This document shows positions 10,051-62,072 of a stretch of DNA of 64,000 bases, piece after piece. The translations under genes and the position numbers were made by a program. The DNA comes from Parcubacteria group bacterium (GTDB taxonomy: Bacteria > Patescibacteriota > Minisyncoccia > Moranbacterales > UBA2206), in NCBI GenBank assembly GCA_041659505.1, contig JBAZYF010000004.1, positions 78,922 to 142,921 of the forward strand. Reading direction: 5' to 3'. Within the stretch, counting starts at the first letter, position 1, and every line of letters begins with the position of its first letter. The notes under the pieces were generated by a model. That model searched no databases and was not told the origin of the DNA. It saw nothing but the letters and a program-made list of their open reading frames with translations.

Positions 10051-10189
10051 GTCATCCTGAGCGAAACGAAGTGGAGTCGAAGGATCTTCTTAACACTATC
10101 CAAAGCTTAATTTATATTTGCAAAGCTTGGGGTATCGGTAGGCAGATCCTTCGACTTCGTCCTGAGTACAGGACTTCGCTCAGGATGAC
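10051..10189. mobile_element. MITE-like element, family B (TIR GTCATCCTGAGCGAAGTC...CGAAGGATC), copy 1
   Basis: Inverted termini at 10051-10085 and 10150-10189. Second copy at 54376-54502. Confidence 0.75.
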
Positions 10190-13827: not shown

Positions 13828-14229
13828 ATGGACTCAAAAATCATCATCGCGTCTGGTCCAGTTATTGTGGAAGATAATAAAGTTCTTCTTGATTTGCAAG
13901 GAGACGATAATTTTTGGAAGTTTTGTGGAGGAAAGACTAAAGAAGGAGAAGCTCTTAAGGAAACTGCGCAAAGGCGAGCCAAGGAAGAGCTAGGAATCAA
14001 AATCGAAATTCTGGATGAAAAACCTTTTCTTATTCACACGACAAAAGAAACAACGGATGGGCTTGTTGATGTTATTCTGGTTCACTATCTTGCCAAACGC
14101 CGCGGCGAGATCACACCAGGCGCTGACATCCGAGAGTGTAAATGGATTCCACTTTCCGATCTAGAAAAAGAAAATCTAGCGCCGAATATTCTTCCTACAC
14201 TAAAATATTTTGAGTTTATTGCCAGCTAA
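13828..14229 (+). CDS. NUDIX hydrolase
   Basis: Nudix box GGKTKEGEALKETAQRRAKEELGI (Gx5Ex7REUxEExGU). Confidence 0.85.
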   Translation: MDSKIIIASGPVIVEDNKVLLDLQGDDNFWKFCGGKTKEGEALKETAQRRAKEELGIKIEILDEKPFLIHTTKETTDGLVDVILVHYLAKRRGEITPGADIRECKWIPLSDLEKENLAPNILPTLKYFEFIAS

Positions 14230-15357
14230 TTGCCCACATGCCCCTGCCACTTCTTGCCCCAGACTTTTTCTGATTGTTACACTCATTCCACCTTTTTCTA
14301 AAAAGTCTTTGAAAAGGTGTGTTTTATTGCCAGATGATGCTTTAAATTCTTCTCCGGTTTCATTATAAGCGATTAGGTTTACATGCAAAAGTTGACGATG
14401 ACCGATTGATTTGAGATAGGTCGAAAGCGCGTAGGCATCTTCTTCACTGTCGTTGATGCCGGAAAGCAGTACATACTCAAAAAATATCTGCCGATTTGTT
14501 TTGGAAAAATAATCCTTGAGTGCTCCTTTCAACTCTTCTAAATTGTATTTTTTATTGATCGGCATAAACCGGTTTCTTTTTTCATCGGTCGCGAAATGCA
14601 GAGAAATTGCCAGATTGATTTGCGGAAATTCTTCGGCCAAGTTTTTTAACCCCTCAGGAATTCCAGCTGTTGAAACGGAAATGCTGCGCGAACCAAATGC
14701 AAATAAATTTTTATCCACGAGGTCACGCAAACTTTTTTTCACTTCCTCCCAATTCAAAAAAGGCTCCCCCATTCCCATATAAACAATATTACTAATCTGC
14801 CCCCTCTCCTTGATAAGGAGATTCTGATTCTGCCAGGTGACAGAATCAGAGGGGTGAGGTGCATTTTTTTCTTGTTCACTGTTCCCTGTTCCCTGTTTTC
14901 TGATGTACTGTCTCCAAAACAAAACCTGATCCGTGATTTCTTCCGCCGTCAGATTTCTTTGCAGTCCGCCTTTTCCTGTTGCACAAAAACTACAGTTCAA
15001 AGGACAGCCAACTTGCGAAGAAATGCAGACCGACCACTTTTTTTCCCCGCCTGCAACGCTATGCGTAGCATTGCGGGCAGGCATTGGAGATAACAAAACA
15101 GATTCGATTTTGTTTCCGTCAGCTAATTTCAAAAGAGCTTTCAAAGAACTCTTATCTTTTGATACTAAAACTTTTTCCACCTCGAAGGATAAAATTTTCA
15201 TTTCTTTCTCTAGTGTCTCGCGTAAATTTTTGGAAATCGTTGAGATTTCTGAAAAATCAGAAACGCCATCCTGATAGATGGCTTTTTGGATCTGGCTCAA
15301 GCGAAATTTCAGCTCGCCATTGTCAGTGAGGATTTTTTTTAGTTTTTCGAGTTGCAT
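14200..15357 (-). CDS. rlmN: 23S rRNA (adenine2503-C2) methyltransferase RlmN (radical SAM), carrying two in-frame palindromic insertions
   Basis: CISSQVGCPLNCSFCATG radical-SAM cluster. GMGEP motif. Start set at MQLEKLKK: the upstream 16 codons of the listed ORF are encoded by the MITE-A terminus (RLRGND = rc of GTCATTCCCGCGGAG). Confidence 0.85.
   Translation of the reverse strand: MQLEKLKKILTDNGELKFRLSQIQKAIYQDGVSDFSEISTISKNLRETLEKEMKILSFEVEKVLVSKDKSSLKALLKLADGNKIESVLLSPMPARNATHSVAGGEKKWSVCISSQVGCPLNCSFCATGKGGLQRNLTAEEITDQVLFWRQYIRKQGTGNSEQEKNAPHPSDSVTWQNQNLLIKERGQISNIVYMGMGEPFLNWEEVKKSLRDLVDKNLFAFGSRSISVSTAGIPEGLKNLAEEFPQINLAISLHFATDEKRNRFMPINKKYNLEELKGALKDYFSKTNRQIFFEYVLLSGINDSEEDAYALSTYLKSIGHRQLLHVNLIAYNETGEEFKASSGNKTHLFKDFLEKGGMSVTIRKSLGQEVAGACGQLAGNKLKIF
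14801..14854. repeat. Composite palindromic element in frame inside rlmN. Outer arms CCCCTCT/AGAGGGG. Inner palindromes CTCCTTGATAAGGAG and CTGATTCTG...CAGAATCAG.
   Basis: Nested inverted repeats. Falls within a 25-aa segment absent from E. coli RlmN, between QVW and NVV(M)MGMGEP. Confidence 0.6.
15046..15081. repeat. 36-bp near-perfect palindrome CCCGCCTGCAACGCTATGCGTAGCATTGCGGGCAGG in frame in rlmN, encoding PARNATHSVAGG. Identical copy in gpmI.
   Basis: Exact 36/36 identity with 49662-49697. 16 of 18 positions self-complementary. Confidence 0.85.
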
Positions 15358-15368
15358 AAATAATTTAG

Positions 15369-15539
15369 TGTCATTCCCGCGGAGGCGGGAATCCAGACAC
15401 CTCAAGTTTTAAAATAAAGAGAAAGCAAATTACTAAAATTCAAGGTTTACTGAAGTAGAAAACTAATCCGACTTGCAGCTCGATTTTTCAGAGATTATAG
15501 CTGGTGGAACCTGGATTACCGCCTTCGCGGGAATGACAC
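15369..15539. mobile_element. MITE-like element, family A, copy 2
   Basis: TIRs GTCATTCCCGCGGAGGCGGGAATCCAG / CCTGGATTACCGCCTTCGCGGGAATGACAC. Confidence 0.8.
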
Positions 15540-15551
15540 GAAAGAAAAAAT

Positions 15552-15890: not shown

Positions 15891-16826
15891 TTAAAGTTCA
15901 CTGAGACTCGCAAGTCTTGCAAATTCTTCATTCACGATTTTTTGCATCCGCGCCAGAACCGGTTTATTTTTTTCCGAGAAAAGATGTTTGAATCGGCCTT
16001 GGGTTTTCAAAAATTCGCTCACTGGTTTTAGGGTTTTTGGTTCATAATTTAGCGTATACTTTCTGCTTTCTCCGCCCAAGGCGGATCCGCCTTGGGCGGA
16101 AATTTCATAGAGCGGCCAAAAATTTGTTTCTGTCGCCAATTTGGCAATCGCCACATATTGCGAGGTGGGAAATTTCCAATTATTCGTGCACGGTGAAAAG
16201 ACTGTGAGAAAGCTTGGCCCATCGACTGCTAAGGCTTTTTTGGCTTTCATTTTGAGGTCCGCAATGTTTGCAATATTGGCTTGTGCGGCATAGGAGATAT
16301 TATGCGCCGCCACAATGCCCATCAAATTTTTGCGCATCTCGACTTTGCCAAAAGATTCTTTTCCGACTGGTGTCGTTTCTGTTCCCGCGCCATAAGGCGT
16401 CGCGGACGATCTTTGATTGCCCGTGTTCATATACCCCCCATTATCATAGACAACGTAGAGAAAATTGTGCCCGCGCTCAAGTGCACCGGACAATGCTTGC
16501 AGTCCAATGTCGTAGGTTCCCCCGTCTCCGCCAAAGGCAACAAACTTAATTTTCTTTTTGATCCTGCTTTTTTTTCGCATAAACTGATAAGCTCTTTCCA
16601 CACCAGAAATCGTCGCCGCCGCGTTTTCAAATGCGCTGTGGATATATGGTACGTTCCAGGCGGTGTAGGGATAGATAGTCGAAGTCACCTCAAGACATCC
16701 TGTTGCATTGGAAATCACTACCGGCGTAGTCGCCTCGCCCAAAATCGTCCTGACAATTGAAGGAAACGCACACCCCGCGCAAGCGCTATGACCGGGGGCT
16801 AGGTTTTTTGCTAAATTTTTGTTCAT
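15891..16826 (-). CDS. porB: Pyruvate/2-oxoacid:ferredoxin oxidoreductase beta subunit (TPP-binding)
   Basis: GHSACAGCAFPS Cys motif. TPP motif GGDGGTYDIG...NGGYMNTGNQ. Confidence 0.9.
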   Translation of the reverse strand: MNKNLAKNLAPGHSACAGCAFPSIVRTILGEATTPVVISNATGCLEVTSTIYPYTAWNVPYIHSAFENAAATISGVERAYQFMRKKSRIKKKIKFVAFGGDGGTYDIGLQALSGALERGHNFLYVVYDNGGYMNTGNQRSSATPYGAGTETTPVGKESFGKVEMRKNLMGIVAAHNISYAAQANIANIADLKMKAKKALAVDGPSFLTVFSPCTNNWKFPTSQYVAIAKLATETNFWPLYEISAQGGSALGGESRKYTLNYEPKTLKPVSEFLKTQGRFKHLFSEKNKPVLARMQKIVNEEFARLASLSEL

Positions 16827-18485: not shown

Positions 18486-18577
18486 TCTGAACCACTGATT
18501 AGCACTGAGGGCACGTGATTTTACGTGAATAAAAATCAGTGAAATCAGGATAATCAGGTGCTAATCAGTGGTTCTGA
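18486..18577. mobile_element. MITE-like element, family C (20-bp TIR TCTGAACCACTGATTAGCAC, about 95 bp), between porD and porG
   Basis: Perfect inverted termini. Internal CACGTGATT/AATCAGTGAAATCAGG motifs shared with copies at 23697, 24850 and 50431. Confidence 0.8.
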
Positions 18578-18578
18578 T

Positions 18579-19148
18579 TTATATTGCGTCGTACGCCTTC
18601 TCAATCGCCAGGATATTTTTTTCACAATTCTCTTTGCCGATCTTATCTTCAAAAATTTTGCGGAATTCTTCCAAGATGCTTGCCAATTTCACGATTTCCG
18701 TCACTTTGATGATTTTCCCCAAGATTACTGTGTTCGGCCTGGGTTGCCCGACAATCGCCATAGAAATTCCATTAGCGTCGACGGCGTGAATTTTTCCTTC
18801 AAAACGGATAATATCTCTGATTTCGTGCGGATGTTTAGTAGAATTAATAATCAGTGCTTCATTCTTGTCCAAGCCTTCCGTCACCTTTTGACTCTCCAAA
18901 AGTGTATCATCCAAAACCACAACCACATCCGGATCAACTACCGGTTCTTTGGTGCGAATCGGTTTGTCAGAAATGCGCAAATAAGTCTTGGTCGGCGCAC
19001 CGCTCCGCTCAGGACCAAAATTGGGAAAAGTTTGCACGAAATTGCCTTCAGCAACCGCTGCCTGCGCAATAATTTCCGCGGCCGTCTTCGCCCCTTGCCC
19101 ACCCCGCGCAAAAAAGATAATCTCCATTGTGTCTTTATGATATTTCAT
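18579..19148 (-). CDS. porG: Pyruvate/ketoisovalerate ferredoxin oxidoreductase gamma subunit
   Basis: MEIIFFARGGQGAKTAAEI signature. Confidence 0.85.
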   Translation of the reverse strand: MKYHKDTMEIIFFARGGQGAKTAAEIIAQAAVAEGNFVQTFPNFGPERSGAPTKTYLRISDKPIRTKEPVVDPDVVVVLDDTLLESQKVTEGLDKNEALIINSTKHPHEIRDIIRFEGKIHAVDANGISMAIVGQPRPNTVILGKIIKVTEIVKLASILEEFRKIFEDKIGKENCEKNILAIEKAYDAI

Positions 19149-19185
19149 AGGATTAGTATAGCATAAAATTTAAATTGGTTGTAGA

Positions 19186-19315
19186 GACGAGGCATTGCCT
19201 CGTCTTGGCATTATTGGTTTATGCTCTAATATTGTTTGTTTTTTAGACGAGGTGGTGCCTCGTCTCTACAATTATTGCTAGGCACAAAAAAGACGCCCCA
19301 ACGGGGCGTCTCTAC
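19186..19315. repeat. Cluster of three GTAGAGACG-family hairpins. The last (AGACGCCCCAACGGGGCGTCT plus U-tract on the minus strand) is the probable terminator of the thioredoxin-fold gene.
   Basis: Hairpins at 19195-19216, 19244-19268 and 19291-19314. Outer arms GTAGAGACG (19191) / CGTCTCTAC (19261). Confidence 0.7.
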
Positions 19316-20922: not shown

Positions 20923-20936
20923 AATTTTCAGTCCAT

Positions 20937-21103
20937 GTCATTCCCGCAAAGGCGGGAATCCAGGTTCCACTAGTTTTAAATTTTAGAAAACCGAATTATA
21001 AATCTTCTAGCTTTTTATTATATAAAGTTTATTTCAAAATAATTTGTTTTATCGATATTTTTAGCCTGAGGTGCCTGGATCCCCGCCTTCGCGGGGATGA
21101 CAC
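20937..21103. mobile_element. MITE-like element, family A, copy 3
   Basis: TIRs GTCATTCCCGCAAAGGCGGGAATCCAGGTTCC / GGTGCCTGGATCCCCGCCTTCGCGGGGATGACAC. Confidence 0.8.
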
Positions 21104-21188
21104 ATTAAGATTTCCTTTTTAGCAGTCTACCACAAACAAAAAAGCGCTACAACTTGCGCTTTTTGGGATTTATTGTGTAATTTTATTC

Positions 21189-23696: not shown

Positions 23697-23797
23697 TCTG
23701 AACCACAAGATTAGCACTGATTTTCCTGATTGCACGTGATTATGGTTTTTAAAATTCAGTGAAATCAAGTGTAATCAGTGATAATCAGTGGTTCTGA
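23697..23797. mobile_element. MITE-like element, family C, copy 2 (between the ABC ATPase and permease genes)
   Basis: TIR TCTGAACCAC...GTGATAATCAGTGGTTCTGA. Confidence 0.8.
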
Positions 23798-24526
23798 TTA
23801 TTTCAATAACTCATTCTCTCCATCCGCAATCCGCCGATGCTTCACCGGGTCATCAGCAATAATACTGCCGTCTTTGACGTAGATAATACGTTTGGCGTGT
23901 TCGGCAGTATATGTTTCATGCGTGACTAAAATTACGGTATGTCCTGTGTCATTCAGTTTTTGTAAAATCCGCATCACCTGGAGGCCGGATTTCGAGTCCA
24001 AGTTCCCTGTCGGTTCATCAGCAAAAATCACTTCCGGATCATTGACCAGCGCCCGCGCAATTGCCACGCGTTGCTTTTCGCCGCCCGAGAGTTGATTGGA
24101 AAAATATTTCGCGCGATGCTCCATCCCAACAGCCAACAGCGCATCCATCACTTTTTTTTCATTGCTTTTTCCCGGCTTTTCATCATAGAGCAAGGGCAAC
24201 TCCACATTTTCAAAAACCGAAGTGCGAGAAAGTAAATTAAAAGATTGAAAAACAAAACCAATCTTTTTGTTCCGGATTTTCGCCAACGTATCATCATCGA
24301 AAGAAAAAGTGTCACGTCCTTCAAAAAAATATTTCCCTTCCGTCGGCCGGTCAAGTAGTCCCAAAATTTGCATCAAAGTCGATTTACCGGAACCGGACGG
24401 ACCCATGATGGAAATAAATTCCCCTTTTTGAATTTCAAAGGTCGCGCCACAAAGCGCCCGCGTTTCCACGCCTTCACTGGAATAAGTTTTACAAAGATTT
24501 TGAACTTGAATTAGGGGGTTTGACAT
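23798..24526 (-). CDS. ABC transporter ATP-binding protein (MacB/LolD-type)
   Basis: Walker A GPSGSGKST. Signature LSGGEKQRVAIARAL. Walker B IFADEPTGNLD. Confidence 0.9.
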   Translation of the reverse strand: MSNPLIQVQNLCKTYSSEGVETRALCGATFEIQKGEFISIMGPSGSGKSTLMQILGLLDRPTEGKYFFEGRDTFSFDDDTLAKIRNKKIGFVFQSFNLLSRTSVFENVELPLLYDEKPGKSNEKKVMDALLAVGMEHRAKYFSNQLSGGEKQRVAIARALVNDPEVIFADEPTGNLDSKSGLQVMRILQKLNDTGHTVILVTHETYTAEHAKRIIYVKDGSIIADDPVKHRRIADGENELLK

Positions 24527-24849: not shown

Positions 24850-24947
24850 TCTGAACCACTGATTCTCACTGAGTGCACGTGATTTCACTGAATTTAGAAT
24901 TCAATCATGTGTAATCAGTAAAATCATGTGCTAATCAGTGGTTCTGA
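24850..24947. mobile_element. MITE-like element, family C, copy 3 (between the adaptor and ATPase genes)
   Basis: TIR TCTGAACCACTGATT...AATCAGTGGTTCTGA. Confidence 0.8.
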
Positions 24948-24950
24948 TAA

Positions 24951-26264
24951 TTAGACCGCTTTTGTAAAAGTAACCACTTTGTCCCCGGCGTTCAGGCCAG
25001 ATTTCACTTCCACCATTCCCCCATCACCCTCGAGACCGGTAGTAATTTTCACTTCTTGTGTCGTGTTGTCCGCTTTCAAAACATCTACGAATTTTTCCCC
25101 ATTCACAATTTTAATTGCGCGCAGAGGAATCATCAGTGCGTCCGCCTTGTCATTCGTCTTAACATCGATGTTCGCGCTCATGCCAACCTTCAACCGTTGA
25201 TCAAAATTTGCCAGTCTCAACTTAACTCCATAATAAACCACATCTTGAATGACGGTTTCGGCCGGATCGATCTGGATTAATTCCGCATCAAAATTTGTGT
25301 CCGCCGGAAGCGCATCGAAAGTGATATTTGCCTTTTGCCCCAACTTCAATTTTACGATGTCCGATTCGGGGATATTTGATTCAATGATAAAATCATCAGT
25401 GATGATGCGCGCGAAAGATTCCTTGATCACGCCAGTGCCCAAGATTTCTCCCACCTTATTGTTCACCTCAACAATCGTTCCAGAGACAGGCGCTTTGAGC
25501 ACGGCCTTGGACAGATCATTAAGTGCCACTTCATATCCGGCTTTCGCACTATTTACCTGAGCATTCTTCGAATCACGTGTAAAGTCCGACTGAGTCGTTT
25601 TGAGCCTGGCTTTCGCCGCATCGACAGAATTTTCCGCCTGCGTAACTGAAAGATCACGAGATTTTTTGGCCGTATCGAGAGCTTCCTGAGCTGATTCCTT
25701 AGCATTAAGCGCTTGAGTCAAGGTCAATTTATTGGCCTTACTCGGAGTATCGTCATAAAAAGCCTGCGCGTCGTCATAGTAATCCTTAGCATTGGAATAG
25801 GCGGAATCTGCCGCGTCGACTTGTTGCTTTTGCAGATCTTTTGTGTCATCCAAGCTGTTTTCCGCATTATCAACCGCCACCTGAGCTTCGCGAACTGCAT
25901 CATTATTTGAGCCTGCATCGGCAGTGGCTTTGTCCAGTGCCGCTTTCGCCTGAGCAACTTGCCCAGACAGATCTGTGCTGTCCAGCATCGCGATCGAATC
26001 ACCAATCGCTACCTTGTCGCCTTTTTTGACATATATCTTACTGATCCTACCGCCCAATTCAAAATTGAGCACAATCTCTGAATCATCTTTCAGATCCCCA
26101 GTCGCAGAAACTGTTTGCGCCAAATTACCCCTCTCCACTGTCGCGGTCGTATATTCAACTTTTGGCTTTTTAGACCGCGCGTAGAAAAAGTAGCCAACAG
26201 CAATAATCAGTATGAGTATAAATGCAATGGTTTTTTTGTATTTTAGCATCTTTTTTAGTCTCAC
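24951..26264 (-). CDS. Periplasmic adaptor subunit (HlyD/MacA family) with a long coiled coil
   Basis: N-terminal TM helix. Biotinyl-lipoyl-like and beta-barrel segments flanking an approximately 150-aa coiled coil. First gene of a macA-macB-like operon. Confidence 0.8.
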   Translation of the reverse strand: MRLKKMLKYKKTIAFILILIIAVGYFFYARSKKPKVEYTTATVERGNLAQTVSATGDLKDDSEIVLNFELGGRISKIYVKKGDKVAIGDSIAMLDSTDLSGQVAQAKAALDKATADAGSNNDAVREAQVAVDNAENSLDDTKDLQKQQVDAADSAYSNAKDYYDDAQAFYDDTPSKANKLTLTQALNAKESAQEALDTAKKSRDLSVTQAENSVDAAKARLKTTQSDFTRDSKNAQVNSAKAGYEVALNDLSKAVLKAPVSGTIVEVNNKVGEILGTGVIKESFARIITDDFIIESNIPESDIVKLKLGQKANITFDALPADTNFDAELIQIDPAETVIQDVVYYGVKLRLANFDQRLKVGMSANIDVKTNDKADALMIPLRAIKIVNGEKFVDVLKADNTTQEVKITTGLEGDGGMVEVKSGLNAGDKVVTFTKAV

Positions 26265-47061: not shown

Positions 47062-48600
47062 TTAATTTACTGCGAGACCAGTTGGGACTTCAGGATGAGA
47101 AACATCAATCAAGTCTTGGAGTGGATGCGGATAAATTAACGGGGTATAAGTCAAAGTATGATTTCCTGCGCCTGATGGCTGACTCGCCGTAATGGAATAG
47201 TCAACGTCCCCATTACCAAATCCCGCTGTAACATGTGGCGTGCTTTTGAAATAATTGACTCCACTATAAATGACAACACCGAAGCTATTGTCACATGCTA
47301 GCCCCAAGGCTGAAGAATCATAGCACTTGTCCTGAAGGCCATTATTCCAGACATAGAGGGGGAAAGTTGTTTGTTTATCGCCAGAAAGTATCTGCGCCAT
47401 AGTTTTTCCCGCCGCCCTTCCGGTTTGCGCAAGGCAGGGCCAGCCAGGAGCAGAAGCATCGCCCGCATTTCCGTCCCAAGCATGTGTGCCATCGCAGTAA
47501 AGTAGTGGCGCTCCGGTCTGATCCTGCTCAGGAAGCCTCCCCTCTCCTATCCTAATTGCATTTTCCGGCCAACCGACAAAAGTATTGTCATAAATTAGAC
47601 CCGTGCCACCGCCATGGATGCGCATCGGAGTCAACCAATCACCGCCATAATCCCAACTAAATTTATTATTATAAACCTCCCACCATTGTGTGTTGACGCT
47701 TCCTCCTGTCGTCCAGTGAGAATATAATCCCACATCTGTGAGCGTATTATGGCGAAAAACTATCCTTCCTCCCCGATAACCGCTGTCGATAGCCGCATAG
47801 CCGGAAGCACCGTAGGGTCCGGTTGAACTAGCCACGAAAGTGTTGTCTTCAATGTAAATTGCATTTAAACTTCCCGGCTGAAAAGGCTGTGCTAGGTTAT
47901 ATGCTCCGAAAATATTATTTATCGAACCGTCTTCCGAAGAAAATTCTCCGTCATATATAATAGTTGACTCGCAATTCATGACAAAATAGTTATGATCAAT
48001 GAGGCCAAAGGCGAGTCCGCGAATCGTAATTGCGTGCGGACCGCAGGTATTAGGGTAATAGAAAGTCATATGATCAATCCTCCAGCCATAACTAGTGCCT
48101 GACGGTTGAACTGGATAATTATAGCCGTCATTAGAAAGAGAAAACCCGCCACCATTATTTAAGCTAGTTAAAAAAATATTTGTCACCCTCCAGGCCATTT
48201 TTGTACTATTTGTTTCACTGGAATAAATTCCGCTTGTGTTCATCAATCCGTCGTCAGTCGTTAAACAAGTATCAACGGATGGATTACAAGAACATGTGCT
48301 ACCTGCGCAAGAACCATGTCCCTGCCCTTGAAGTGTTATATTTTTATCCACCCAACCTACACCGTTATCCCAAGCAGGATTGACGTTGCAAGATCCGACA
48401 CTAATATTGACCACGTCTCCGTCGATTGCCAAGCTTGTCGCACTGGTAAGTGCAGTTGTAATATCACCGGAACAAGTAACATTCCTAGTTGCCCCAAAAG
48501 TTTTCCCCGCCACTCCAAACACTCCACAAAAAAGAATTATGAGAAAAAAGATTTTTAGTTTCAAGTTTTGGCGCATTTTTTTCTGCCCAAGACAAATCAT
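47062..48600 (-). CDS. Secreted parallel beta-helix repeat protein, paralog 6. Most divergent. The start may be Met at 48576.
   Basis: Leader MRQNLKLKIFFLIILF. Beta-helix rungs. Ends ...HPEVPTGLAVN. Confidence 0.65.
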   Translation of the reverse strand: MICLGQKKMRQNLKLKIFFLIILFCGVFGVAGKTFGATRNVTCSGDITTALTSATSLAIDGDVVNISVGSCNVNPAWDNGVGWVDKNITLQGQGHGSCAGSTCSCNPSVDTCLTTDDGLMNTSGIYSSETNSTKMAWRVTNIFLTSLNNGGGFSLSNDGYNYPVQPSGTSYGWRIDHMTFYYPNTCGPHAITIRGLAFGLIDHNYFVMNCESTIIYDGEFSSEDGSINNIFGAYNLAQPFQPGSLNAIYIEDNTFVASSTGPYGASGYAAIDSGYRGGRIVFRHNTLTDVGLYSHWTTGGSVNTQWWEVYNNKFSWDYGGDWLTPMRIHGGGTGLIYDNTFVGWPENAIRIGEGRLPEQDQTGAPLLYCDGTHAWDGNAGDASAPGWPCLAQTGRAAGKTMAQILSGDKQTTFPLYVWNNGLQDKCYDSSALGLACDNSFGVVIYSGVNYFKSTPHVTAGFGNGDVDYSITASQPSGAGNHTLTYTPLIYPHPLQDLIDVSHPEVPTGLAVN

Positions 48601-48842: not shown

Positions 48843-50426
48843 CTAGCTTAGCAAAGAATTTTTGGCCATTAATTTTGGCTTTTCTATTTCCAAAATATCC
48901 AAAATAGTCGGCGCAATGTTGCCCAGCACTCCCCCGTCTCTCAGTTTTTTATCTTTAAGTTTTTCGCTAATGATCAAAAAGGGCACAGGATTTTTTGTGT
49001 GATAGGTATTGGGCTGGTCACTGCTAAAGTCGATCATGTCATCCGCGTTGCCATGATCTGCGGTAATAATCAAGTTTCCCTGAAGCTCTAAAACTTTTTT
49101 CGCCAATCGTTCGATTTGCTTATCCAAAAATTCTACCGCTTTAATTGTTGCGCCAAGATCTCCGGTATGTCCGACCATATCCGCGTTAGCATAATTGACT
49201 GCAATGAAATCGTATTCATTTTTTTCCAGCACTTCCAAAATTTTGTCCGTTATTTTTTCCGCCGACATCTCCGGAACTTCGGCGTAGGAATCAACAATGG
49301 GAGATTTGATCATAATCCGCATTTCCCCTCCGACCGGATCAGCGTAGCCACCGTTAAGAAAATAGGTCACGTGGGCGAATTTTTCTGACTCAGCGATATA
49401 TAGTTGGCGAATATCCCCCAGCACCATAGGCAAAGTGGCCGAGATTGTATATTCCGGAAAAGCCGTATGCTCATCCAAGCCAGGACCAAAATCAGTCAGT
49501 GCGACGAAATATAAATTTCCAATCTTGTCGATAACTGGCATATCATCACGCAGGATGCTTTTTTCATCATTGGCGATAAATAATTTACTGAATTGCCTGG
49601 CGCGGTCAGAACGGAAATTATAGAAAACTAAGGCGTCGTCTTTTTTGATCTGCGCTACAGGCCCGCCTGCAACGCTATGCGTAGCATTGCGGGCAGGTGC
49701 ACTATTCTCCAGAATGACTGTCGGCAAGAGATACTCGTCTGTTAGTCCAGCAGTGTAGGCTCTTTCAATCGCCTCCTCAGCGCTGTTAGCTTTTTCACCG
49801 CGCGCAAAAACGGCCGCGTCATAGGCCAAGGTCAACCGTTTCCAATTTTTGGCCCGATCCATCGCATAGAACCGGCCAGAAAGAGTTGCAATCTTTCCAA
49901 TTCCCTCTTCTTTTATTATCCGTCGGAAATATTTCAGATGTTCTAGTGCACTCCTAGGATAAGAATCCCGTCCATCTGTAAACAAATGGCAATAAACTTC
50001 CTTGACGCCATTTTTTTTGGCTAATTTGAGAATCGCGCGAAAATGCTCCGGATCACTGTGCGGACTGTCGCCATTACCCATCAGCCCCATCAGATGAAAG
50101 TTGCCACCGGTTTTTTTCACATGCTTCACCGCGCCGATCATCGCAGGATTCATAAAAAAACTGCCATCTTTGATGCTATCAGTGATATATTTCGAGTCCT
50201 GTGGCACGATCCGACCGGCACCGATATTCATATGCCCCGCTTCCGAACCACTCATCTTGTGATCAGGTAGTCCCACGCAAGTTCCCGTCGCGCAAAGTGT
50301 CGTGGAAGGATAAAGATCGAATAACCGATCAATTGTCGGTTTTTTTGCGAGAGTAATCGCGTTGCCTTTGCCCGGCGGAGCGATACCGTAGCCGTCGAGG
50401 ATTACTAGGAGAGTTGGTGTTTTCAT
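48843..50426 (-). CDS. gpmI: 2,3-bisphosphoglycerate-independent phosphoglycerate mutase, carrying the in-frame PARNATHSVAGG palindromic insertion
   Basis: MKTPTLLVILDGYGI... iPGM N-terminus. Metal ligands. 36-bp element at 49662-49697. Confidence 0.9.
   Translation of the reverse strand: MKTPTLLVILDGYGIAPPGKGNAITLAKKPTIDRLFDLYPSTTLCATGTCVGLPDHKMSGSEAGHMNIGAGRIVPQDSKYITDSIKDGSFFMNPAMIGAVKHVKKTGGNFHLMGLMGNGDSPHSDPEHFRAILKLAKKNGVKEVYCHLFTDGRDSYPRSALEHLKYFRRIIKEEGIGKIATLSGRFYAMDRAKNWKRLTLAYDAAVFARGEKANSAEEAIERAYTAGLTDEYLLPTVILENSAPARNATHSVAGGPVAQIKKDDALVFYNFRSDRARQFSKLFIANDEKSILRDDMPVIDKIGNLYFVALTDFGPGLDEHTAFPEYTISATLPMVLGDIRQLYIAESEKFAHVTYFLNGGYADPVGGEMRIMIKSPIVDSYAEVPEMSAEKITDKILEVLEKNEYDFIAVNYANADMVGHTGDLGATIKAVEFLDKQIERLAKKVLELQGNLIITADHGNADDMIDFSSDQPNTYHTKNPVPFLIISEKLKDKKLRDGGVLGNIAPTILDILEIEKPKLMAKNSLLS
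49662..49697. repeat. Second copy of the 36-bp in-frame palindrome (identical to 15046-15081), inside gpmI
   Basis: Exact identity. Encodes PARNATHSVAGG in the same reading orientation. Confidence 0.85.
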
Positions 50427-50430
50427 AATA

Positions 50431-50537
50431 ACTGAACCACATGATTAGCACGTGATTTTCCTGATTACACATGATTTTGAATTTTGATTATTCCCTTCAG
50501 TGAAATCAGTGTTTTCAGTGATAATCAGTGGTTCTGA
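50431..50537. mobile_element. MITE-like element, family C, copy 4. Fills the whole gpmI-eno spacer.
   Basis: TIR CTGAACCACATGATTAGCAC...GTGATAATCAGTGGTTCTGA. Confidence 0.8.
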
Positions 50538-50541
50538 TTTT

Positions 50542-51795
50542 TTAGATTTCTTCCTCAATCCTAAGCAGTCGATTATACTTACAAATCCGCTCTCCCCGCG
50601 AAAGCGATCCGGATTTCATATAATCTGCTCCAGCGCCAACGGCAAGATCCGAGATAAAATCATCGGTTGTTTCTCCACTGCGATGCGAGACGACGATTTT
50701 CATCTTATTTTTCTTGGCTAATTTGATACAATCAATAGTTTCGAAAAGCGTGCCGATTTGGTTGACTTTGATGAGCACAGCATTGCAAGCCTTTTTGGCA
50801 ATCGCCAGTTTGACCCTTTTGACGTTTGTCACTAAAAGATCATCACCGATATTCATCACGTCTTGGCCGAATTTTTCATTCATCTTGGCCCAGCCATCAA
50901 AATCATCTTCAGAAAGCCCATCTTCAACAGAAATCACGTTATATTTTTTCACCCATTCGACATAAATATTAACCAACGCTTCTCGGCTCAAAACAGCATT
51001 TTCCGGTTTAAACAGATACTGCTTTTCTGTCGCGTCAAAAAACGAACTGGCTGCCGCATCAATACCAATATTCAACTCTGCGCCCTTTTTGTAGCCGGCT
51101 TTTTCAATCGCTAAATTAATCAGTTCCAGCGCCTTAGCATTGCTTTCTAATCTTGGGGCAAACCCACCCTCGTCTCCCACACCGATACTGAAGCCTTCGG
51201 CGGAAAGCAACTTTTGGAGCGCATGAAAAACTTCACTGCCAGCGCGCAGTTGCTCCTTGAAAGTTTTCACACCGTTCGGCACTAATTTATATTCTTGGAT
51301 GGAAAGTCCCGAATCACTATGTTGACCACCGTTAATGATGTTAAACATCGGAATTGGCAATTTGAACTTTTTTGGCAACTTGAAGGTCTCGGCGATATAT
51401 TTATACAACGGCACATCCAACTCGTTAGCCGCCGCGCGACAAACTGCGATGGAAACTCCCAAAATTGCATTGGCTCCCAGATCCGTCTTATTTTCCGTTC
51501 CGTCCAAAATAAGCATCGCTTTGTCAATGCCCTTTTGATCACTGGCTTCCATTCCCAAGAGCGCTTTTTGAATTTTTTCATTCACATTCGCCACGGCTTT
51601 TTCTACTCCCAGTCCGCCATAACGACTCTTGTCCCCGTCACGCAGTTCCAATGCCTCATGCACCCCAGTCGAAGCCCCGGACGGCACCATAAAACTTCCT
51701 TTCGCTCCGGATTCTAAACTCACTTCCACTTCCACTGTCGGATTACCCCGCGAGTCCAAAATCTCTCGCGCGTAGATTTTTTTGATCTTACTCAT
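50542..51795 (-). CDS. eno: Enolase
   Basis: MSKIKKIYAREILDSRGNPTVEVEV. Catalytic motifs. Confidence 0.95.
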   Translation of the reverse strand: MSKIKKIYAREILDSRGNPTVEVEVSLESGAKGSFMVPSGASTGVHEALELRDGDKSRYGGLGVEKAVANVNEKIQKALLGMEASDQKGIDKAMLILDGTENKTDLGANAILGVSIAVCRAAANELDVPLYKYIAETFKLPKKFKLPIPMFNIINGGQHSDSGLSIQEYKLVPNGVKTFKEQLRAGSEVFHALQKLLSAEGFSIGVGDEGGFAPRLESNAKALELINLAIEKAGYKKGAELNIGIDAAASSFFDATEKQYLFKPENAVLSREALVNIYVEWVKKYNVISVEDGLSEDDFDGWAKMNEKFGQDVMNIGDDLLVTNVKRVKLAIAKKACNAVLIKVNQIGTLFETIDCIKLAKKNKMKIVVSHRSGETTDDFISDLAVGAGADYMKSGSLSRGERICKYNRLLRIEEEI

Positions 51796-53009: not shown

Positions 53010-53038
53010 AAATAACGCTGTAGAGACGCCCCAGCGGG
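53010..53038. repeat. GTAGAGACGCCCCAGCGGGGCGTCTCTAC hairpin (GTAGAGACG family) between glyA and pgk
   Basis: Perfect 12-bp stem. Same family as 19291-19314. Confidence 0.7.
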
Positions 53039-53085
53039 GCGTCTCTACAAAAATACATCCTTGTTTTAATAGATTTATAGTTACC

Positions 53086-54375: not shown

Positions 54376-54502
54376 GTCATCCTGAGTGAAGTCGAAGGAT
54401 CTACTTTCCATTATCGTAAGCCTTATTGTTAAGCAGACAACTCTGGGTTACGGTTAGCAGATCCTTCGACTACGTCCAAGTACGGACTTCGCTCAGGATG
54501 AC
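54376..54502. mobile_element. MITE-like element, family B, copy 2
   Basis: TIRs GTCATCCTGAGTGAAGTCGAAGGATC / GATCCTTCGACTACG...CGCTCAGGATGAC. Confidence 0.75.
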
Positions 54503-61824: not shown

Positions 61825-61898
61825 AGATAAATTGTTTAACCAATTAAATCCTGTAATAAATCCACTGTCCTTCTGATAAGATACAACCTGAAAAAATT

Positions 61899-62065
61899 GT
61901 CATTCCCGCGAAGGCGGGAATCCAGGTTCCTCTGGCTATGAACTCTAGAAAATCGAGCCACAAGTCTGGCAAGTTCTATATTTCAGTTAGTCTTGAATTT
62001 TAATAATTCGTTTTTCTTTATTTTTCACCTGGGGTGCCTGGATCCCCGCCTTCGCGGGGATGACA
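61899..62065. mobile_element. MITE-like element, family A, copy 4
   Basis: TIRs GTCATTCCCGCGAAGGCGGGAATCCAGGTTCC / GGTGCCTGGATCCCCGCCTTCGCGGGGATGACA. Confidence 0.8.
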
Positions 62066-62072
62066 AGGAAAA

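Follow-up and report, generated by a model that had tools for sequence, protein, structure and literature searches.

A 36-nt hairpin element in frame in rlmN and gpmI of a Parcubacteria genome, and its probable place in a widespread mobile family

The locus and its two host genes

Here, we describe a 36-nt palindromic element that occurs twice in a stretch of 64,000 nt from a Parcubacteria group bacterium (contig JBAZYF010000004.1 of assembly GCA_041659505.1), which we call the window. Homologs put the host genome in the Moranbacteria/Parcubacteria, within the Candidate Phyla Radiation (CPR). One copy lies at 15046-15081 inside rlmN (14200-15357), which encodes a 385-aa radical S-adenosylmethionine (SAM) 23S rRNA/tRNA adenine C2 methyltransferase (100% match to P0001; PF04055 and PF21016). 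The other lies at 49662-49697 inside gpmI (48843-50426), which encodes a 527-aa cofactor-independent phosphoglycerate mutase (100% match to P0121; PF06415 and PF01676). Both genes and both copies are read on the reverse strand. The listed TTG start of rlmN at 15405 extends into an unrelated upstream repeat, and the shorter coordinates were therefore taken for the gene.

At both positions, the forward strand reads CCCGCCTGCAACGCTATGCGTAGCATTGCGGGCAGG. On the coding strand this is CCTGCCCGCAATGCTACGCATAGCGTTGCAGGCGGG, which we call orientation A, and each protein gains the peptide PARNATHSVAGG, as residues 93-104 of RlmN and 243-254 of GpmI. An initial annotation of this DNA had reported the 36/36 identity, the common reading orientation and the common peptide, and an exact search (0 mismatches) bears out all three. 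The identity between the copies spans exactly 36 bp, with neighbouring bases differing on both sides, and no other part of the window matches the 36-mer at up to 3 mismatches (0 expected from 100 shuffles). The tryptic peptides expected to carry insert residues are NATHSVAGGEK from RlmN and NATHSVAGGPVAQIK from GpmI.

In an AlphaFold model of RlmN (mean predicted local distance difference test score, pLDDT, of 81), residues 93-104 are predicted as a loop between strands 83-89 and 106-112, with a pLDDT below 50, directly preceding the CPLNCSFC radical-SAM cluster. Alignment to the solved structure of Cfr (9p0p) leaves a gap across most of the insert. The annotation had placed the peptide in the loop just before the CxxxCxxC cluster, and both the model and the Cfr alignment agree with it. 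In the GpmI model, residues 243-254 are predicted as a low-confidence loop between strands 236-239 and 265-269.

Presence and absence in orthologs

Among 33 aligned RlmN sequences, none of the ~25 closest orthologs (78-86% identical) has the 12-residue segment, and most GpmI orthologs likewise lack it. This comparison is one that the annotation had proposed. At the nucleotide level, the empty rlmN site of one ortholog (L001) reads CCTATG^GAAAAT where the window has CCAATG[36]GAAAAA, and empty gpmI sites read GGTGCG^CCCGTC (L003) and GGCGAA^CCGGTA (L131). In each case, the difference is a clean 36 nt, and no target-site duplication was seen at any of the empty/filled sites compared in rlmN and gpmI. 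A miniature inverted-repeat transposable element of the DDE type would have complementary ends, as the 36-mer does, but was rejected on this absence of target-site duplication.

Three lineages are filled at the identical nucleotide position of gpmI, directly 5' of a conserved Pro codon. The window and L004 carry the identical 36-mer there in orientation A; in L005, it stands in the opposite orientation (B) and is read PACNAM..RSIAGR, its centre split by a second palindromic insert of 63 nt. In the GpmI tree, the L004 protein pairs with an empty sister (L131, 94% identical), with L005 as the outgroup of that pair, and the window protein falls in a separate clade whose other members are all empty. 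Gains, losses or inversions must therefore have happened at least three times at this one position.

The 63-nt element of L005 (CCCGCTCGCCCGTCTGCAACGATAGCATTTCGGGCAGGCAGCGATGCAGCATCTTCGGGCGAG, at ~1195-1257 of that locus) occupies the central loop of the gpmI 36-mer and is itself in frame, adding 21 residues.

In more distant RlmNs, family members (PARIATRSVAGG) occupy a neighbouring position of the same loop; in L006, a further copy, diverged and inverted, lies directly upstream of the first; and the RlmN of another Moranbacteria (L084) has the element at a third site. Across lineages, RlmN holds family members at three different sites. The lengths of in-gene inserts of related kinds (33, 36 and 63 nt) are multiples of 3.

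If the 12 residues were ancestral or convergently selected protein sequence, their nucleotide identity would be incidental. One GpmI (P0123) does have the same 12 residues at the same site. The closest orthologs, however, lack them, identical DNA occurs in unrelated proteins and in intergenic DNA of many phyla, and the same gpmI site, where it is filled in orientation B, yields another peptide. We found no ortholog that had the residues without the palindrome, and we regard this explanation as effectively refuted, its probability being vanishingly small.

An artefact of assembly, or a chimera, could also make two sites identical, and both copies do lie on one metagenome contig (ena:ERZ27247358:k141_1339487). 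Against this, the same gpmI-site insert is present in independent samples (ERZ27247824 and ERZ27248911), with L004 and L005 as independent assemblies that carry it; the genome stretches with family members, at least 120 in number, come from many studies and assemblers; and the inserts keep the reading frames of long genes. We give an artefact a negligible chance. The annotation had proposed a selfish palindromic element inserted in frame in coding DNA, in the manner of Rickettsia palindromic elements (RPEs), and the empty orthologs, the clean 36-nt presence/absence and the occurrence in at least 120 other stretches all uphold that proposal.

Family, hosts and fold

To take a census of the family, we searched a single genome for each species, using a degenerate consensus that fixes 25 of the 36 positions, and all resulting counts are lower bounds. 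The family comprises at least 122 copies in at least 120 genome stretches and at least 29 sequence variants, of which the exact sequence of the window is the commonest, with at least 40 copies. Its consensus is CCTGCCCGCA-NN-GCTACGC-NN-AGCGTTGCAGGCGGG. Among the matches listed, the CPR hosts are Saccharibacteria, Moran-, Nomura-, Roizman-, Gottesman-, Collier-, Portnoy-, Komeili-, Nealson- and Giovannoni-bacteria and Microgenomates; the high-GC hosts are Kiritimatiellia, Lentisphaerae and Verrucomicrobia, with long contigs and several copies per genome; and a few further host bins belong to Gammaproteobacteria, Bdellovibrionales, Fibrobacterota and Chloroflexota. The annotation had considered the element in this kind of genome only; the family is not specific to it and spans several phyla, in both the CPR and the Planctomycetes-Verrucomicrobia-Chlamydiae (PVC) group. 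Among the loci listed, conservation past 36 nt was seen only in nested arrays of PVC genomes and in the GIY-YIG cassette described below.

The annotation had also supposed the element to be undocumented for this kind of genome. In the searchable open-access literature, we found no paper with its sequence or peptide, none on in-frame palindromic or miniature inverted-repeat elements in Patescibacteria and none describing a hairpin/GIY-YIG/tRNA cassette, which is consistent with that supposition without proving it. No Rfam family matches the element at its gathering threshold, only sub-threshold noise being seen over it, and the sole Rfam match in the window is one tRNA elsewhere. Two further candidates were rejected. 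A CRISPR repeat (clustered regularly interspaced short palindromic repeat) was set aside since there are no arrays, the listed loci having at most 2 copies per 8 kb, 297 nt or ~3 kb apart, and the Rfam CRISPR-DR20 match, at 15.9 bits, is well short of the gathering score of 42. A phage vector was set aside since 2.9 million viral contigs gave 2 matches, both of one high-GC sequence and with no credible open reading frame (ORF) context.

Covariation supports the maintenance of a two-tier stem-loop, in which an outer stem pairs positions 1-6 with 31-36 (6 bp) and an inner hairpin (7 bp) pairs positions 7-14 with 18-25 around a 3-nt TAC loop. In the window, the inner hairpin (element positions 7-25, CGCAATGC-TAC-GCATAGCG) lies on the reverse strand at 15057-15075 and, with identical sequence, at 49673-49691. 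Covariation falls at pairs 11-21 and 12-20, where positions 11-12 and 20-21 occur as AT/AT, TT/AA, GT/AC and TC/GA. Over the 29 variants, pairing holds in 96.6% of cells, double-sided changes number 20 compared with 8.5 +/- 1.8 in shuffles, and the covariation score of 0.149 (versus 0.065) was reached by 0 of 500 shuffles. The DNA hairpin has a minimum free energy of -12.6 kcal/mol (z=-4.0).

A simple centred palindrome and the thermodynamic minimum were tried as alternative folds and rejected, their covariation not exceeding that of shuffles. The palindrome described in the initial annotation is unsupported in its simple centred form. The '16/18 self-pairing' holds only when wobble is counted, the 18 pairs being 14 Watson-Crick, 2 G.T and 2 mismatches.

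Reading frames and translation

For low-GC hosts (GC <0.47), we asked which copies lie in stop-to-stop ORFs of at least 150 aa. This holds for 31 of the 57 listed copies, compared with 81% of random 36-nt windows from the same loci (p=6e-6); copies are thus rarer in ORFs than at random positions, yet more than half are there. Pfam identifies the host ORFs as core proteins, namely ThiI, GltX, ArgS, a Mur ligase, a penicillin-binding protein (PBP) transpeptidase, FtsZ, a LytR-CpsA-Psr (LCP) protein and RecG.

The reading frames of the 31 in-gene copies are far from evenly used. Frame 0 of orientation A, read P-A-R-(N/I)-A-T-(H/Q/R)-S-V-A-G-G, holds 25 copies (81%; p=1.3e-10), frame 1 of the same orientation (LPAMLRIALQA) holds 3, and orientation B accounts for 2 copies in frame 0 (PACNAMRSIAGR) and 1 in frame 1 (PPATLCVALRA). 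Frame 2, which contains TAG in the commonest variants, including that of the window, holds none in either orientation (0/31; p=3.5e-6). The annotation had counted one of three readings as stop-free, and this needs correction: two of three are open per orientation, or four of six in total. When the other 26 low-GC copies were excised in silico, no long ORF was restored, so these 26 include no in-gene copies read in a stop frame.

Of the four open readings, the favoured one gives the most hydrophilic peptide, with Pro and Gly-Gly at its ends. Intergenic copies between tandem genes are oriented 10:5, compared with 28:3 in genes, a difference that is suggestive only (Fisher test, p=0.09). Given an intergenic ratio of only 10:5, the in-gene bias is best explained by selection on the peptide rather than by directional insertion. 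On this evidence, in-gene copies appear to be translated and filtered by selection.

The alternative is that the element is removed from the mRNA or bypassed by the ribosome. The mobile GC clusters, or 'byp' elements, of yeast mitochondria are short GC-rich palindromic insertions in AT-rich genomes, some of them in protein-coding genes, and their resemblance to the 36-mer as short GC-rich insertions, together with the stability of its hairpin, counts in favour of bypass. Byps, however, are skipped by ribosomes and are indifferent to frame, whereas the frame statistics of the 36-mer indicate translation: stop frames are avoided, one frame dominates, the related in-gene inserts are multiples of 3 as well, and excision of the 26 copies outside ORFs restores no split gene. 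Skipping would impose no such constraints, and these argue against ribosomal bypass or RNA-level removal, which we consider very improbable.

Target sites and nesting

The base directly 5' of in-gene copies is a purine in 29 of 31 cases, and the base directly 3' is C in 14 of 31; intergenic copies often have TA directly 5'. Several copies lie inside the loop of another family copy, at TGC^GTA, with the flanks ..GCAACGCTGTGC[copy]GTAGCACTGCGG... In high-GC hosts, 12% of the listed copies interrupt the apex of an unrelated hairpin whose flanking stem has 6 bp or more, compared with 1.6% of random junctions (p=2.4e-5), and some of the outer hairpins around them end in GGCTAC, as in repetitive extragenic palindromic (REP) sequences.

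A natural comparison is with REPs moved by a REP-associated tyrosine transposase (RAYT) or an IS200-type Y1 (HUH) transposase acting on single-stranded hairpin DNA. The 36-mer resembles REPs and REPINs in being an imperfect palindrome in the 20-40 nt range, with many dispersed copies and no target-site duplication, and both are presumed to act as folded single strands; insertion in hairpin loops likewise suggests single-stranded targets. A weak Y1_Tnp-like gene with a PNHIHAII motif lies beside gpmI in a relative (L003; E=0.0055, below the Pfam cut-off), with a homolog in L036. On the other hand, there is no Y1-like gene in the window and none recurs near copies; neither of the two weak genes is flanked by the element, and the L036 gene is flanked by unrelated AT-rich hairpins of its own (AAAGGTTAAACCTTT). 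REPs carry a 5' GTAG and flank a RAYT gene, whereas the 36-mer has no conserved GTAG (nor CTAC) at the hairpin foot, where the 5' flank is only ..TA in intergenic DNA and a purine in genes, and shows no RAYT linkage in the window or the loci. REPs are extragenic, unlike a family with more than half of its listed low-GC copies in ORFs, and normally species-specific, whereas the 36-mer is identical across phyla. Mobilization by such an enzyme is, in our view, unlikely.

The two genes, at 4109-4557 of L003 and 5275-5970 of L036, are IS200/RAYT-like Y1 (HUH) genes in CPR genomes. The AT-rich hairpin that brackets the L036 gene on both sides, TAGCCTCAAAAGGTTAAACCTTTTTT, may form with it a separate REP/RAYT-like pair.

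Spread could also proceed with no dedicated enzyme, through the replication and repair of the host (by template switching, or by microhomology-mediated capture of an abundant hairpin DNA at breaks) and through gene conversion between strains. The gpmI target, GG(T/C)G(C/A/G)(G/A)^CC(C/T/G)G, resembles the element's own two ends joined head to tail, GGCGGG^CCTGCC; the C that follows nearly half of the in-gene copies points the same way, and most copies have no conserved gene nearby. The rlmN site, however, has no such microhomology, and the identical 36-mers of the window and L004 have different flanks, so there is no long common conversion tract. Near-identity across phyla and fold-keeping covariation point instead to recognition by a specific factor, and the non-random link with the cassettes described next would be left unexplained. 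We rate enzyme-free spread as quite unlikely.

GIY-YIG/tRNA cassettes

When all ORFs of 90 aa or more from ~120 loci were clustered against one another, no family was present in more than 6 loci, and all families were housekeeping; the 90-aa cut-off excluded the gene that concerns us here. Loci of Saccharibacteria (L068) and Nomurabacteria (L083) have common flanks beyond the 36-mer, pointing to a 78-aa ORF that is a GIY-YIG catalytic domain (PF01541, E=2.8e-15, 56.8 bits against a cut-off of 22.6). Of nine GIY-YIG ORFs in the listed census loci, six have the element 15-30 nt 5' of the start codon, in either orientation (p=1.6e-9). The hairpin-plus-gene unit is common to the Saccharibacteria and Nomurabacteria at 83% amino-acid identity.

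Directly 3' of the cassette GIY-YIG genes stands an intact tRNA (Val-GAC, Gln-TTG or Asn-GTT), and on their 5' side a duplicated 5' fragment of the same tRNA is split by the hairpin at about tRNA positions 9-13. The layout in L068 is GGGCGGTTA[36]GCTCAGTTG-aaaaaat-ATG...TAG-GGCGGTTAGCTCAGTTGGCTAGAGCG, and the whole 297-bp hairpin-plus-gene unit is in tandem duplicate there. An element-interrupted tRNA was tried as the host of the L068 and L083 copies and rejected, as ARAGORN predicts no tRNA there with or without excision; the flank proved to be the duplicated tRNA 5' fragment upstream of the GIY-YIG gene. Cassettes occur with several tRNA identities and in several lineages. In L021, a GIY-YIG gene is followed by a Tyr-GTA tRNA, with no matching 36-mer upstream.

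The association was also seen from the side of the protein. In 80 metagenome loci fetched by protein, an upstream GC-rich hairpin and a downstream tRNA tend to occur together (20/8/3/49, p=1e-9). One of these loci (L148) has the exact 36-mer and six more have it with 2-10 mismatches; others have sister hairpin families, in some cases nested, that share the CCCGCC.../...GGCGGG termini. In one Saccharibacteria metagenome-assembled genome, cassette-linked copies (L068) coexist with a solo in-gene copy (L008) of identical sequence.

More distant GIY-YIG homologs (L149-L210) have neither tRNA nor hairpin. Many of them have a conserved-looking motif, TTCACCCCGTTAGATA / TTTACCCTGTTAAAT, 10-25 nt 5' of the GIY-YIG start, matched by a loose regular expression in 12 of 52.

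Four intergenic solo copies of the 36-mer (L119, L116, L057 and L075) have junctions that resemble the tRNA D-arm, for example GGAGTGTAGTTCA^TCGGTAGAACGC. These may be further tRNA relics or interrupted tRNA genes on short contigs.

Slx1 is a structure-specific nuclease. The minimal GIY-YIG domains that stand alone in prokaryotes fall in the Slx1 group (PMC1564403). Among GIY-YIG homing enzymes, SegB of phage T4 sets a precedent for a location at tRNA genes (PMC2330249). The cassettes resemble such free-standing homing genes (PMC2330249) in having a nuclease gene beside tRNA genes, in behaving as selfish cassettes and in being patchy among relatives. They differ from the Seg enzymes in that the proteins consist of the catalytic domain only (78 aa, the Slx1-like minimal form; PMC1564403) and are chromosomal in CPR, and in the added duplicated tRNA 5' fragment split by a GC-rich hairpin, a partner of a kind not described for Seg.

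Interpretation

The 36-mer is probably a copy of a widespread family of non-autonomous mobile hairpin DNA elements, translated as a tolerated loop where it lies in genes. It is a discrete 36-nt unit that is present or absent at otherwise corresponding sites, stands in both orientations, uses one site recurrently and nests in hairpin loops; in genes, it occupies open frames, with one dominant, and its linkage to GIY-YIG/tRNA cassettes is non-random. We infer that the element moves as folded single-stranded DNA and inserts blindly with respect to reading frame, and that selection afterwards purges harmful copies. With a unit of 12 codons and four of six frames open, copies in tolerant protein surface loops would survive and be translated, and the favoured small hydrophilic peptide of frame 0 is the one that rlmN and gpmI carry.

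As for the enzyme, a stand-alone Slx1-like GIY-YIG nuclease acting in trans, encoded by the 78-aa gene of the tRNA-linked cassettes with their constant 5' hairpin, may supply the breaks or strand transfer, a tentative candidate to which we give a minor share of the probability; its chief rivals are a Y1/RAYT-type enzyme and host repair. Similarly tentative is a fuller version, in which the hairpin and its sister families are non-autonomous partners of minimal, selfish and so far undescribed cassettes, each made of a hairpin, a 78-aa nuclease gene and a regenerated tRNA 5' end. Such cassettes would home into the D-arm region of tRNA genes, and their nuclease would drive free hairpin units into hairpin loops and other single-stranded sites genome-wide, seeding translated 12-residue loops in essential CPR proteins. 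As the D-arm region is conserved in all bacteria, this version, if true, would explain the spread across phyla.

Several points weigh against our interpretation or against parts of it. The 64-kb window has no GIY-YIG gene of the cassette subfamily, and no GIY-YIG gene adjoins any of the 65 listed copies in high-GC hosts, so the link to the nuclease is one of physical association in the CPR only. That association gives no direction, and the hairpin could be a target, regulator or passenger of the cassette. Solo insertion sites have no overall likeness to the tRNA D-arm (Mann-Whitney p=0.52), which leaves simple off-target cleavage by a D-arm-recognising nuclease unsupported. The counts, diversity and covariation of the family come from the few variable columns left by the scanning pattern, and some small low-GC contigs, such as those labelled 'Gammaproteobacteria', may be mis-binned CPR. 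Finally, translation is deduced solely from frame statistics, and the predicted GpmI loop comes from a poor model (mean pLDDT 65).

Comparison with known systems

RPEs, which Ogata and colleagues reportedly described in 2000, are palindromic repeats in frame in conserved genes. The 36-mer resembles them as a selfish palindromic repeat that lies in frame in conserved genes, translated as an extra surface segment, and also in intergenic DNA, and in the coexistence of several families in one reduced genome; its conserved host ORFs encode RlmN, GpmI, ThiI, GltX, ArgS, a Mur ligase, a PBP transpeptidase, FtsZ and RecG. It departs from RPEs in length, its unit being exactly 36 nt (12 codons) rather than ~100-150 bp, in nesting in hairpin loops and in its link to GIY-YIG/tRNA cassettes. 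RPEs are also restricted to Rickettsia and relatives, whereas the 36-mer is near-identical in CPR and PVC; the two are set apart here by description. RPEs are further discussed in PMC1779305. PARCELs are palindromic coding repeats distributed horizontally among diverse microbes (PMC2996958); they are longer tandem repeats within genes for surface proteins, in Mollicutes and others, whereas the 36-mer occurs as single insertions in housekeeping enzymes. The 36-mer is a real variant of protein-coding palindromic elements for which we found no description in the searchable literature.

Heterocystous cyanobacteria have small dispersed repeats (SDRs), which Elhai and colleagues are said to have described in 2008 as hairpins of 21-27 nt that are apparently mobile. 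We know of no mobilising enzyme for SDRs, of no dominant translated frame in essential genes and of no association with a nuclease gene. The 36-mer is like them in its very small size, compensatory changes and self-nesting, and unlike them in hosts and sequence. The 36-mer also differs from REPs in that its sequence is common to several phyla.

Protein-coding palindromes, so far a curiosity of Rickettsia, are hereby extended to the CPR and PVC with a unit 3-4 times smaller. If our interpretation holds, the smallest and most streamlined genomes bear active selfish DNA in FtsZ, aminoacyl-tRNA synthetases, RlmN and glycolytic enzymes, and there would be a concrete mechanism for many of the short lineage-specific insertions in CPR proteins. 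Alignments, phylogenies and gene calls can go astray on such inserts, as the rlmN start in the window exemplifies. The favoured Pro...Gly-Gly peptide would be a natural insertion-tolerant linker. How transposase-less REP-like and SDR-like elements move has stayed an open question, and the GIY-YIG/tRNA association provides a testable candidate for the movement of very small hairpin repeats; this cassette link is a lead, and would be the more novel part if confirmed.

Other repeats in the window and in relatives

A second in-frame palindrome, unrelated to the 36-mer, lies 1 kb from the rlmN copy. This perfect 28-nt sequence, CCGCCCAAGGCGGATCCGCCTTGGGCGG, at 16070-16100, is read SAQGGSALGG within the ORF at 15891-16826 (reverse strand), which encodes a thiamine pyrophosphate enzyme resembling the 2-oxoacid:ferredoxin oxidoreductase beta subunit; the L006 ortholog lacks exactly those 10 residues. 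In-frame palindromic insertion is, accordingly, not confined to one family. In our RlmN alignment (A1), two more hypervariable insertion hot spots, at columns ~225-290 and 438-470, hold repeat-like peptides (NPHPNPLLSKERG, FKFQISNFK, PQAGPPRAEK and VIASVAKQS...PRND), and the RlmN of the window has a 30-aa segment at the first of them, which suggests other in-frame repeat families.

The repeat upstream of rlmN, from which the TTG start yields the spurious N-terminal extension MRCLDSRLRGNDTKLF, is one of four copies of a composite intergenic repeat of ~170 nt (2600-2760, 15369-15541, 20936-21105 and 61898-62068), bounded by inverted GC-rich hairpins, TGTCATTCCCGCGAAGGCGGGAATCCAGG ... CCTGGATCCCCGCCTTCGCGGGGATGACA. 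The intergenic DNA of the window has several other GC-rich hairpin families. Two more families of hairpin repeats lie at 10070-10162 and 54385-54477 (..GTCGAAGGATC..GATCCTTCGAC..) and at 19179-19271 and 53016-53048 (TGTAGAGACG..CGTCTCTACA). Clusters of an AT-rich motif (variants of AATCAGTGATAATCAGTGGTTCTGA, direct and inverted) lie at 18486-18583, 23739-23803, 24850-24953 and 50442-50543, one of them directly upstream of the gpmI start; the motif may serve as an operator or promoter, or belong to another repeat family. Between 39693 and 47041 stand three to five tandem paralogous genes with segments 75-90% identical (repeat families D1, D2 and D4), which apparently encode secreted proteins and adjoin a 512-aa ORF at 47062-48600.

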